DNA of 64,000 nucleotides. Origin: Candidatus Aminicenantales bacterium. Its GTDB lineage: Bacteria > Acidobacteriota > Aminicenantia > Aminicenantales > UBA4085. The stretch spans positions 1-64,000 of the forward strand of contig JBEKTZ010000010.1 in assembly GCA_049515535.1 (NCBI GenBank), given 5' to 3'. How positions within the stretch are numbered: the stretch's first letter is position 1; each line of letters opens with the position of its first letter. The position numbers are program-made. Below, in pieces: positions 18,001 to 21,000 of this stretch.

Positions 18001-21000
18001 GATCTTGTCCTTGTGACGGCCCCAGACCTCGTAGTCGTTGGGATCGTGGCCGGGCGTGATCTTGACGCACCCGGAGCCGAGCGAGGGATCGGCCCACGCG
18101 TCCAGGATGATCGGAATCGCGCGATCGAGAAGAGGAAGACGGGCTTTTCTCCCCTGCTCGGCCATCGCCTTGAGCTTCAAGAGATGGGCGAGCTGAGTCG
18201 CTTTCCGTTCTTCGACGCGCTCCAATGTCGTCTCCATCTCGGCCCGCTCTTTTTTCGACGCGCTCCCCGTGCGTTCCCTCAGGTCCCGCGCCTGCTTGTC
18301 GAGCTCGCCGGCCGGATCGGGATGACAGGCGACGGCCGTGTCGCCGAGCATGGTTTCTGGGCGCGTCGTGGCCACGATCAGGAATTCCGGCTCCCCCGGC
18401 TTCGGATCGACGATCGGATATTTGATGTGCCAGAAATGCCCTTGGATCTTCTCATAGACGATTTCGTCGTCGGAGACGGCTGTTTGGAGCTGGCAATCCC
18501 AATTGACCATGCGATTGCCGCGGAAAATCAGGCCGTCGCGAAAAAGGCGGAAGAACGCTTCGCGCACGGCCCGGGCGCAGATGGCGTCCATGGTGAAGCG
18601 CTGGCGCTGCCAATCGCAGGAGCAACCCATGCTCTGCTGCTGCCGGATGATGCGCTCCCGGTATTCGTCCTTCCAGGCCTGGATCTTCGCCACAAGGCCG
18701 TCCCGGCCGATGTCGTTCCGGGTCTTTCCTTCGAGCTCGAAGAGCCGCTTCTCGATGACCGCCTGCGTCCCGATTCCCGCGTGATCCGTGCCCGGCATCC
18801 AGAGGGTGTTGTCGCCCATCATCCGGTGCCACCGGGTGAGCAAGTCCTGCATGACGTTGTCCATGGCATGGCCCATGTGCAGGGCGCCGGTGACGTTGGG
18901 CAGCGGCATCATGATGACGTAGCGGTTCGTCCGGCCGTCGGGGAGGGCCGCGAAAGCGTCGGCCTCGAGCCAGCGGGCGCAGATTTCGGCCTCGGTTTTC
19001 CGGGGTTCGTAGAGCTTCGGGATCTCTTCCGGCATAAGCTAAATCCTTTAAAAAGTTCCTATTACTTTTACCATATCGGGGGGCGCCAGGCAAACGGGAC
19101 GTCAGCAGCCATCGGCAATTTCGGGTCCGAGGGGACTTTTCAGACTCTTATTTCTCTGAGATCGATCTTCGTCAAATCGTCCGTACCGAGCCCTTTTTTC
19201 GCGCATCGGCACGTCAAGGGACGAGCCTTCACGGCGGAAGTGGACCCCCGGGCAAAGCCCGGGGCCCCGGCCGCCGTCGACGGACTCGGTCAATGCCTCA
19301 TGAAGCGCAGCGGCTTGCCCGGCTCGACGTCGATCGGCTTCTCGGTCGACGGGTTACGCTGGGCCTTCCATTCCCAGACGATGTCCTTTCCTCCGGACTG
19401 GAACTTGATCATTCCGCTTATGGAATATCCCCCGGCTTTGCCTTCGAAGACCAGAGGGACGATTTTCCCTTCGACCGGCCGCTCCATGGTGAATCGGATC
19501 TGGTCGCCTTTGAGCGTCAGGTCTTTGATCTCGGCCGCCGTGCCGCCGATTTTCGCGCTGCCGGCCGGGACCTGGAAAACCTGGGTGAGCGCCATCTCGC
19601 ATTTGACGGCAGGCTTATCCATGGTCCACGTCCACGTCCCGCTGACGTTGGCTGGAATGATCCACAAATAGACATCATGGGAAATGTCGTCGACCATGAC
19701 CTCCGACGTCTCGTCCGCTTTCCATTCGCCCATGCCGAAATTGTGCGAGACGATGCGCGTCCCGGGCCGCAGATCCCGGAGCAGCTTCGGCCGGAGTTTG
19801 AGGTTGACGCTCGTCAGCAGATAGAGGGTCATGACCGTGGCTTCGTGAAAATCGGCCTGAAAGAGATCCTGTTCATAGAATTTGACGAGGTTCGTGACGC
19901 CGGCTTTGACGGCATTGTCCTGGCTTTCCTGGATGCGCTCGGGATCGATATCGAAGCCGACGCCGCGGGCGCCGTATTTTTGCGCGGCGCCGATGACGAG
20001 GCGGCCGTCGCCGCAGCCGAGATCATAAACGAAATCCGTTTTCTGGATATTGGCCATTTTCAGCATTTCATCGACGACGGGAAACTTGGTCGGAACGAAA
20101 GGGACGTCCAGCTGTTTTTGCTGAGCGGCCTCGCCGGCCGGACCCAGGATCAAGGCCAAAAGGACGAACGCCGGAATCATCGATTTGATCATGATCTTAC
20201 CCTCTCTCAATGAAATTCGCTCATCCTAATATTTATTGCCAATCGGCGAAGATGTCAAGCCTCTCGAAAAGCGGCGCCGCCTTTATGGAAGGAACGGAAT
20301 CCGGTAGAATAGACGGCGCCCAAATGAGCGCCCATGCTTCTCTCCTGCCGATCCTTCTGATCGTGTTTCTGGCGACTCTCGTCCGGTCGACATTCGGCTT
20401 TGGCGACGCGCTCATCGGCATGCCGCTTCTCGCCCTCGTCACCTCGCTCCGCGTCGCCATTCCGCTCATGGCCTTCGTCGGACCGACGATCGCGATCGGT
20501 CTGCTGGCCAGGGAATGGCGGCGCATCGATTGGAAAAGCGCCGTGGGATTGATCATCTCCACGCTGGCCGGCATCCCGTTCGGCATCTTCTTGCTCAAGC
20601 GCGTCGACGAGAACATCGTGAATCTGGCCCTGGCCGCCGTCATCATCGCCTTTTCGCTTTATAGTCTAATCAAGCCGGGGCTTCTCAGATTGACGAGCGA
20701 CCGGCCGGCCGTACTTTTCGGGTTCCTGGCGGGGATTCTGGGCGCGGCGTACAACACCAACGGACCGCCCGTCATTCTCTACGGAGCCCTGCGCGGCTGG
20801 AAACCGGAATCGTTCCGCGCCACGCTGCAGGGCTATTTCCTGCCGACGGGCGGCGCCATTCTCATCGGGCAGGGGCTGGCAGGAATGTGGACCAGGACCG
20901 TCGTGACGACTTATCTCTATGCTCTGCCCCTCATCGCCCTCGGGGTCGTCGCGGGATTGGCCTTGGGAAGGAAGATCCCCGCGAACAGGTTCAACCGCTT

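Follow-up and report, generated by a model that had tools for sequence, protein, structure and literature searches.

The 64,000-nucleotide window analysed here, from the genome of a Candidatus Aminicenantes bacterium, carries g02104, whose product we interpret as an exported aKMT-like N-methyltransferase that would work in the periplasm on S-adenosylmethionine (SAM) supplied by a LAT-type APC transporter. As a whole this is the explanation that we consider best, with about even chances of being right. The genome-wide survey's note had described g02104 as an exported homologue of the archaeal protein-lysine methyltransferase aKMT, and what it observed in the window was confirmed: the 300-aa open reading frame is intact, the aKMT match is real and the family counts are reproducible. 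Its wider reading is supported as to export, while the lysine target and the activity of g02104 are things that we infer, and the paralogue g02294 is a putative lipoprotein. Features of the locus are listed in the table.

Table. Features of the g02104 locus, in window coordinates.
Feature	Position	Strand	Basis
g02104, aKMT-like exported methyltransferase, 300 aa	19290..20192	minus	stop-free ORF, aKMT match, codon substitution pattern
Shine-Dalgarno-like GAGGG	20200..20204	minus	sequence; 7 nt 5′ of ATG at 20192
Putative Sec/SPase I-type signal peptide, residues 1–23	20124..20192	minus	rule-based anatomy: basic n-region, short h-region, Pro
Class I (seven-beta-strand) methyltransferase domain, aKMT/5BXY-like, residues 27–181	19650..20114	minus	profile, sequence and fold matches
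SAM-binding motif I, residues 55–64	20001..20030	minus	alignment to aKMT, conservation
Predicted C-terminal all-beta domain, residues 182–281	19350..19649	minus	model; no Pfam family

The start Met of g02104 is common to its relatives, GC3 is 0.77, and in comparisons with three relatives over 180 codons synonymous changes (52–59) outnumber non-synonymous ones (31–36). The gene lies between valS downstream and a divergent membrane protein upstream, each of which recurs in only 6 close relatives, and we read this neighbourhood as probable local synteny. A search for a sigma-70-type promoter of g02104 found none, and terminators were at chance level.

Residues 30–179 match residues 7–157 of aKMT (5FA8; E 3.4e-39) with 46% identity in a structural alignment, as the survey had reported, but aKMT is not the best solved match: 5BXY from Salinibacter ruber is closer (E 7.9e-50, 55%). 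The predicted model, in which an alignment-based fold gave a pLDDT of 93 and a single-sequence fold only 37, superimposes on the minimal seven-beta-strand fold, with an rmsd of 0.8 Å over 151 columns to 5FAD and of 1.5 Å (Z 27.2) to 5BXY. Within motif I, D57, G59, G61 and G63 are invariant in 117/117 aligned sequences; G61 aligns with aKMT G38, and the available text of PMC4639711 states that a G38R change inactivates aKMT. Residues on the SAM side and the substrate side are both conserved among relatives, and where aKMT residue 9 aligns, g02104 has F and 92/117 sequences have Y. Against NF041081, the aKMT equivalog, g02104 scores 151.9 bits, below the curated cut-off of 200 (a second run gave 154.1 and 142.8 bits for the two copies in the genome), and unlike the single-domain plan of that family it has a signal peptide and a C-terminal barrel added. 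Sequence and model together make a good case that g02104 is catalytically active, and kinship points, with moderate confidence, to protein lysine as its target.

By rule, the N-terminus has the anatomy of a Sec/SPase I signal, with a basic n-region, a short h-region, a helix breaker and a small residue at −1. Cleavage is most likely at A23|Q24 and possible at A22|A23, the exact site being uncertain because the −3 residue is variable (E21 here). The survey's observation that the best 120 relatives generally have a hydrophobic N-terminal stretch was reproduced under a separate rule (116/121, query included), and 128 of 140 scored representatives of 50%-clusters have one, compared with 1/15 control PF14907 fusions; the 12 representatives and the PF14907 fusions that lack a signal mean that cytoplasmic family members exist. 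Among the 128, charge is greater before the helix than behind it in 102 and smaller in 9, with no difference in 17. A membrane-spanning-like 19-mer (hydropathy ≥2.2) occurs in only 16 of them, the best 19-mer of g02104 reaching 1.9, and Tat-like signals are rare (5/128). When 111 close relatives were counted by position, −1 was A, G or S in 100 and +1 was Q in 110. The enzyme has diverged more slowly than the signal region (22–25 of 157 vs 6–13 of 23 residues). These patterns argue strongly for a periplasmic location.

Missing from the survey's description is the C-terminal domain, which is separate from the methyltransferase and which we read from the model as an up-and-down barrel. It also occurs in the same genome as stand-alone signal-peptide proteins. 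Alignment and profile searches of PDB and Pfam with the barrel gave nothing significant (best PDB E 0.018; weak LupI and TbpB rows), and a search of the Atlas returned unnamed clusters only, at 0.85. In fold searches with the whole g02104 model the matches listed all came from the methyltransferase domain, and the viral library yielded nothing more.

The 7527 family clusters at E≤1e-15 counted by the survey were reproduced as a lower bound, the figure being a floor because 8000 candidates were scored; at 50% identity there are 1322 clusters (E≤1e-30). No member was found in 401 Bacillota genomes with the query and cut-off that found the family in three diderm phyla, and among 14 model genomes only Sulfolobus gave a match, which may explain why the family has been overlooked. 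A genome may hold up to five copies, and some proteins have two to four tandem domains. Fusion partners among the 120 longer forms listed, most of which carry signal peptides, include PQQ propellers (22), phosphodiesterase/sulfatase (17), FG-GAP (7), GH9 (4) and TIGR03000 proteins. Deep branches of the methyltransferase-domain tree are weakly supported and one of its rows (L078) is mis-framed, and for this reason we claim no order of events from it. The only strong family matches in the present genome are g02104 and g02294 (C11:109199-110068, 289 aa, as the survey had placed it). The lipobox proposed for g02294 holds in so far as the Cys is present there, but among the 20 members of its group the rule finds it in only 6, and inspection by eye in 7. 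Other members look like N-in anchors or cleaved signals, about 11/20 resembling uncleaved anchors, and the group switches between cleaved, lipid-anchored and N-in anchored forms.

Across five phyla, a LAT-type APC adjoins the family gene. The linked APC scores over the PF13520 cut-off and its 12-helix core matches BasC/LAT structures; its best NCBIfam match, TIGR00911, lies below that family's cut-off (210 vs 701.8). With centre genomes left out, a close APC is present in 7/8 Pseudomonadota carriers and 0/242 non-carriers, and in 5/6 Bacteroidota carriers and 0/194 non-carriers, counts that overstate independence because the genomes are kin and that depend on a cut-off for "close" chosen after the score gap was visible. 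Owing to this kinship, we give Fisher tests no weight. In three genome samples, two centres included, 16/16 close-APC copies adjoin a methyltransferase, in both gene orders. The pair was also found in one Gemmatimonadales genome and in 3/4 plasmid loci read, including Leptolyngbya, and the two-gene cassette is present in harmless strains in culture, including Anditalea andensis and Leptolyngbya boryana. Thirteen APC–methyltransferase fusions were found, one of them with 6 full-length members; 12/13 retain TM11 and TM12 together with a 13th hydrophobic segment, which mostly follows basic residues, and this 13th helix would place the fused enzyme outside. Clade-specific residues mark TM3, TM6 and TM10 of the linked APC, and in the APC tree four APCs without this methyltransferase (L109–L112) nest inside the linked clade. 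A predicted complex of the Anditalea APC, its methyltransferase and SAM, run without controls, scored 0.00 and speaks neither for nor against the pairing. Gene linkage and fusion suggest, with moderate confidence, that SAM and SAH are the cargo of the linked APC, and they make it a candidate for the periplasmic SAM supply that an exported methyltransferase implies.

A close APC was missing from the g02104 genome and all 20 relatives searched (best E 3.4e-65), and from 17/19 other Acidobacteriota carriers. LAT-type APCs as such are present in 21/21 Aminicenantales genomes; more distant APCs flank the gene in 3/19 Aminicenantales carriers, and other signal-peptide methyltransferases flank LAT-type APCs at 7 loci. 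A second APC group, detected in 47/121 Acidobacteriota at E≤1e-70, does not track the aKMT-like family. As the best candidate carrier in the g02104 genome we would guess the APC at C7:165678-167045, which lies away from g02104 and beside an exported 390-aa protein (C7:164509-165681). The latter is at most a candidate methyltransferase, with no match in Pfam, NCBIfam or PDB and an hhalign probability of 3%; its family has an invariant strand-Y-P-F-x-G-P-D motif only. The genome encodes both metK and sahH, and at C6:12358-13110 a PIMT that passes NF001453 (252.2 vs a cut-off of 188 bits). This PIMT has a signal-peptide-like N-terminus, which a second copy on C2 lacks, and signal-peptide PIMTs occur in 9/15 genomes checked (10 by eye).

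In the explanation we prefer, g02104 would be exported by Sec and then cleaved, and the mature protein would be an aKMT-type, SAM-dependent N-methyltransferase of the periplasm. Its targets would most likely be lysines of envelope proteins, recognized with loose sequence specificity, and the barrel probably tethers the enzyme or binds substrate. A LAT-type APC exchanger would carry SAM made by cytoplasmic MetK outward and bring SAH back for recycling by SahH. Porins are wide enough for SAM to leak through, and this counts against such a scheme.

The alternative that we take most seriously, though we consider it improbable, is that the enzyme is exported and active on something other than lysine (a periplasmic small molecule, a peptide, a lipid head group or a glycan), with the APC moving an amino-acid-like substrate or product instead of SAM or in addition to it. 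LAT-type APCs do carry amino acids and TIGR00911 is the best NCBIfam match of the linked one; a small barrel could bind a small ligand, the family is fused to glycoside hydrolases and sulfatase-like enzymes, and g02104 falls below the aKMT family cut-off. Against this, those characterised relatives that come nearest in sequence and in fold are enzymes of protein lysine (aKMT, then PrmA and DOT1), and kinship with FAM173A/B points the same way, as far as the available part of PMC9006661 goes. Several unrelated exported methyltransferase families flank LAT-type APCs, moreover, and what they share is a need for SAM, which a non-lysine target would still require outside. A further alternative, that the cytoplasm-facing arrangement of FAM173A/B applies here and the N-terminal helix is an uncleaved anchor, was the survey's own caveat and seems to us very improbable. 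In FAM173B the enzyme is preceded by a putative transmembrane segment (PMC9006661, in part), about 11 of the 20 members of the g02294 group resemble uncleaved anchors, and our signal peptides were called by rule rather than by a trained predictor. The claim of export nevertheless has several independent lines behind it, which largely exclude that caveat: the N-in/C-out charge bias of 102 to 9, with short h-regions; the conserved cleavage pattern; the fusions in which the domain follows a secreted enzyme; and the 13th helix seen in the transporter fusions. That cleaved, lipid-anchored and N-in anchored forms replace one another within a single group also speaks against it.

Two other readings keep the domain outside and differ over SAM. 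It might be a periplasmic SAM/SAH-binding receptor, with little or no catalysis, that feeds the APC as a scavenging importer; its tight linkage and fusion to a transporter would suit this, and known bacterial SAM carriers work inward according to the part of PMC3104491 available. We think it unlikely, as substrate-side residues are conserved as much as SAM-side ones, copies reach five per genome and domains two to four in tandem, some forms are fused to hydrolases, a linked APC is absent from most Acidobacteriota carriers and the g02104 genome makes its own SAM. Slightly less likely still is real periplasmic methylation with no dedicated exchanger, SAM leaking out, arriving bound or coming from the surroundings, and the APC link reflecting salvage of SAH or methylated lysine. 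The absence of a close APC here and in 17 of the 19 other Acidobacteriota carriers favours it, as does genome G017, which has a signal-peptide PIMT yet no match to the C7 APC at 1e-65. Sec exports unfolded chains, so that no cofactor rides along, and with Tat-like signals in only 5 of 128 relatives the bound-cofactor route is disfavoured; LAT-type APCs are also present in every one of the 21 Aminicenantales genomes, and the E. coli membrane is a barrier to SAM (PMC3104491, available part).

To our knowledge, SAM-dependent chemistry is generally taken to be confined to the cytoplasm, and in the literature searched, which included few subscription papers, no account turned up of aKMT homologues that are exported, of methyltransferases in the periplasm or of the export of SAM. 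Our results suggest an undescribed envelope methylation system run by many bacteria. A broader idea, to which we give a little under even chances, is that many diderms keep a periplasmic SAM economy in which LAT-type APCs swap cytoplasmic SAM for SAH and supply exported methyltransferases of several unrelated families: the aKMT-like enzyme, the exported isoaspartate-repair PIMT, a Methyltransf_31-type family and perhaps the 390-aa family. If true, it would mean that methylation and protein repair have an undescribed compartment in bacteria, and it would bring to light the first SAM exporter from them. The two-gene cassette opens to study the questions of whether SAM is delivered to the periplasm, by which carrier, and how envelope proteins are methylated or repaired after export.

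Among the closest known systems is aKMT/aKMT4 of Sulfolobus islandicus (5FA8, 5FAD, 5JWJ; NF041081), which shares with g02104 the N-terminal active-site motif and motif I. It is a bare 161-aa enzyme that, in the available portions of PMC4639711 and PMC7226565, acts on chromatin, replication and other cell-interior proteins, whereas g02104 also has a signal peptide and a barrel, scores below the family cut-off, and has relatives linked to an APC. 5BXY shows that a bacterial family member binds SAH; its 158-aa chain starts at the catalytic domain, and the name "RNA methyltransferase", which comes from the depositors' title alone, counts against the lysine reading. The mitochondrial ATPSc-KMT (FAM173B) and ANT-KMT (FAM173A), described in the accessible part of PMC9006661, which also notes aKMT homologues in alphaproteobacteria without mention of their export, are lysine-specific homologues of aKMT in which a hydrophobic segment precedes the enzyme, and the family described here bears on their origin. 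Unlike g02104, they have single dedicated substrates, a putative uncleaved transmembrane segment and no barrel; judged by hydropathy rather than by direct alignment, g02104 lacks a membrane-spanning segment ahead of its methyltransferase. The known SAM/SAH carriers are Chlamydia SAMHT, Rickettsia RP076 (DME family), the mitochondrial carrier and the yeast SAM permease. SAMHT and RP076 have the DMT fold and import SAM for parasites, whereas the partner of the g02104 family is a LAT-type APC, proposed here as the supplier of an enzyme on the outside.

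The window covers C10:1-64000. Its focal ORF (g02104) has a ribosome-binding site and coding-like GC3, with an excess of synonymous change relative to three relatives; the source genome is 3.45 Mb, and its nearest relatives carry the name Candidatus Aminicenantes. The homology to aKMT, the broad-range protein-lysine methyltransferase of Sulfolobales, that the genome-wide survey's note had claimed was recovered for residues 30–179 (E 3.4e-39), and Salinibacter 5BXY matches better (E 7.9e-50). The paralogue g02294 also agrees with its earlier description, and the cluster count was obtained again (at least 7527, among 8000 candidates scored); a profile scan run in full yielded 1322 clusters (50% identity) at E≤1e-30 and 6127 at E≤1e-10. 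Against the aKMT family model the focal protein scores 151.9, below the cut-off of 200, and is therefore not filed as a member; it would work like aKMT from outside the formal family. Carriers of the focal family comprise 20/121 Acidobacteriota (including the unpublished genome G068), 9/251 Pseudomonadota and 7/201 Bacteroidota, strong-scoring members occur in 19 of 21 Aminicenantales, and none was found in the 401 Bacillota genomes searched.

Features of the window and of related loci
Feature	Location	Strand	Remarks
Palindromic repeat, ~60 bp	C10:19216-19275		directly 3' of focal gene's stop; ~122 sites genome-wide
Focal gene g02104	C10:19290-20192	minus	ORF translates to 300 aa
TauE/SafE-like membrane gene	C10:20210-21058		divergent, ahead of dmsABC-like genes
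ORF with double repeat copy	C10:21146-21676		repeat in frame at 21167-21292
Molybdopterin oxidoreductase, Fe-S subunit, membrane anchor	C10:21673-25590		dmsABC-like by our reading of the ORFs
ORF with double repeat copy	C10:25594-26640		repeat in frame at 26293-26418
Paralogue g02294	C11:109199-110068		289 aa
Signal-like PIMT	C6:12358-13110 (L245:3359-4111)		NF001453 above cut-off
LAT-type APC transporter	C7:165678-167045
390-aa protein and transporter	C7:164509-167045 (L158:4510-7046)		translationally coupled
Stand-alone barrel proteins	L246:4610-5005, L246:2469-2843		contig C5
Methyltransferase and Calx-beta genes, Gloeothece plasmid	L269:3854-8456

The in-frame repeats resemble palindromic elements inserted into coding sequence. 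The dmsABC-like and TauE/SafE-like genes are not linked to the methyltransferase finding.

A structure model built from an alignment of 117 sequences (pLDDT 93) predicts three parts: a helix at the N-terminus, then a methyltransferase domain of class I, and at residues 182–281 an all-beta domain that, on our reading of the strand pattern, is an up-and-down barrel. The modelled methyltransferase domain superimposes on aKMT (5FAD) with an rmsd of 0.8 Å and on 5BXY with 1.5 Å. Motif I is invariant (D57, G59, G61 and G63 in 117/117), strand 2 ends in D or E in 117/117, and conservation is also seen on the substrate side (P34, T35, Y124, L125, N130, S149, H150 and W157). By alignment G61 corresponds to aKMT G38, and the G38R change is described as abolishing aKMT activity (PMC4639711). 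The barrel domain, for which no sequence match was found in Pfam or PDB, is present in 85 of 146 family representatives, and two stand-alone barrel proteins of the source genome both have signal peptides. The stand-alone exported barrel proteins on C5 flank what we read as a xanthine dehydrogenase accessory-like region.

Export was scored on 146 distinct new representatives from the profile scan, less six in which the domain starts before residue 15. A hydrophobic N-terminal stretch is present, by rule, in 128 of the 140. Of these 128, 102 carry more charge before the stretch than after it and 9 carry less, while in 17 the two sides match. Under the positive-inside rule, a helix with such a charge pattern would leave the enzyme outside even if uncleaved. 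Among the same 128, a membrane-spanning-like 19-mer occurs in 16, a strict lipobox in 8 and a Tat-like motif in 5. Of the 121 close sequences, 111 could be aligned by the motif; position −1 of the presumed site holds A, G or S in 100/111 and position +1 holds Q in 110/111, and proline is frequent 6 or 7 residues ahead of the presumed cleavage site. The paralogue's group has a hydrophobic N-terminus in 20/20 scored members, with a lipobox in 6 (7 by eye), about 11 N-in anchor-like starts and 2 resembling cleaved signals; with so few lipoboxes, the lipoprotein call for g02294 is no longer firm. Lipid anchor, N-in anchor and cleaved signal would, from these sequences, all put the enzyme on the same side. 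We regard export of the focal enzyme as very probable.

Fusions to other domains, surveyed among the 120 longer forms listed, mostly begin with a signal-like stretch: 16/17 phosphodiesterase/sulfatase, 17/22 PQQ propeller, 5/7 FG-GAP and 4/4 GH9 fusions. TIGR03000 protein fusions hold 2–4 tandem aKMT-like domains, and fusions to a MauD/ResA-like redoxin and to a small membrane domain are seen in P0318 and P0345. Fifteen of proteins P0188–P0241 combine it with a PF14907 nucleotidyltransferase-like domain; these PF14907 fusions are cytoplasmic members of the family and count against general export. As an internal control, they have a hydrophobic N-terminus in 1/15, or 0/15 with the first 40 residues alone. 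The Gloeothece plasmid has its methyltransferase gene immediately 5' of the gene for a Calx-beta protein of 3500 aa, which is a candidate substrate.

Thirteen of the 120 longer forms carry the aKMT-like domain behind a LAT-type APC transporter, one of them known from 6 full-length members. Beyond the 12-helix core, 12 of the 13 have one more hydrophobic segment, the 13th, mostly behind basic residues; the thirteenth sequence appears frameshifted. This segment resembles a signal peptide that the enzyme has kept, and with it the domain would lie on the periplasmic side. Close APCs were defined by E≤2e-128, a cut-off chosen post hoc at a gap in the scores. With centre genomes omitted, they occur in 7/8 carriers versus 0/242 non-carriers in Pseudomonadota, 5/6 versus 0/194 in Bacteroidota and 2/19 versus 0/101 in Acidobacteriota. 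All 16 copies in the three phylum samples, two centres included, adjoin the methyltransferase, upstream or downstream. The pair is also found in a Gemmatimonadales genome and, among the four of five plasmid matches read, on plasmids of Agrobacterium salinitolerans, Leptolyngbya boryana and Chelatococcus, not Gloeothece. Counting against the link, four APCs without a focal-family enzyme (L109–L112) nest within the linked clade in the tree. At L109–L111 the APC belongs to an operon, where its neighbours are a TonB-receptor-like gene on one side and a DUF3574 protein on the other, and which converges on a gene resembling spermidine synthase (receptor and synthase by our reading); SAM-derived chemistry is again near. 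We lean slightly towards the linked APC carrying SAM/SAH.

Against this reading, no close APC was found in the source genome or its 20 relatives. More distant APCs flank the focal-family gene in 3 of 19 Aminicenantales carriers (G014, G016 and G019), and the G014/G016 pair clusters with the C7 transporter of the source genome (tree support 1.0, long branch). The G014 transporter as query matched 47/121 Acidobacteriota (including unpublished G068 and G043) and did not track the methyltransferase family. The exported 390-aa protein coupled to the C7 transporter occurs in 12/21 Aminicenantales, adjoining the transporter in 10 of the 12; its 1206 clusters fall into no known family. We liken an invariant motif in it to motif I, and the protein is possibly a further exported methyltransferase; no profile match supported this.

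Other exported methyltransferases bear on SAM supply. Methyltransf_31-type enzymes with signal peptides flank LAT-type APCs at seven loci (L050, L051, L086, L196, L197, L201 and L216). The source genome, which has metK and sahH, encodes two isoaspartate-repair methyltransferases (PIMT), one with a signal-like N-terminus. PIMT requires SAM, so the signal-like copy is separate evidence for a SAM pool outside. A signal-like PIMT occurs in 9 of 15 other genomes by rule, a tenth by eye (hand-picked from genomes already studied); the pairing with a normal cytoplasmic copy recurs in other genomes. The rule call at L253 was a false positive, its apparent signal lying upstream of the start.

In the mechanism we propose, the enzyme would be exported by Sec and then, most likely, cleaved; it would fold in the periplasm, a LAT-type exchanger would bring SAM out in return for SAH, and lysines of envelope proteins would be methylated, probably with aKMT-like loose specificity. 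Catalytic use of SAM outside the cytoplasm is likely, and lysine is the target with somewhat less assurance; the whole mechanism we consider evenly poised.

There are four rival explanations. An N-terminal anchor with the enzyme facing the cytoplasm could draw on the anchor-like starts in the paralogue's group, and runs against the charge pattern flanking the helix. SAM may be supplied without a dedicated exchanger, as the source genome's lack of a close APC would allow. The substrate may be other than protein, to which the likeness to aKMT runs counter, or the domain may be a receptor scavenging SAM/SAH, against which the conserved substrate-side residues speak; methylation of protein is the reading we prefer.

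In Sulfolobus, aKMT methylation is reported to be tied to protein stability (PMC7226565, PMC4639711). Alphaproteobacteria hold aKMT homologues, whose cellular location is not given in the relevant passages of PMC9006661. The literature searched, which covered neither the primary aKMT structure paper nor one FAM173B paper, gave no account of the family's export, transporter link or SAM export. If the transporter carries SAM, enzyme and transporter would together form a system without a described bacterial counterpart in that literature.
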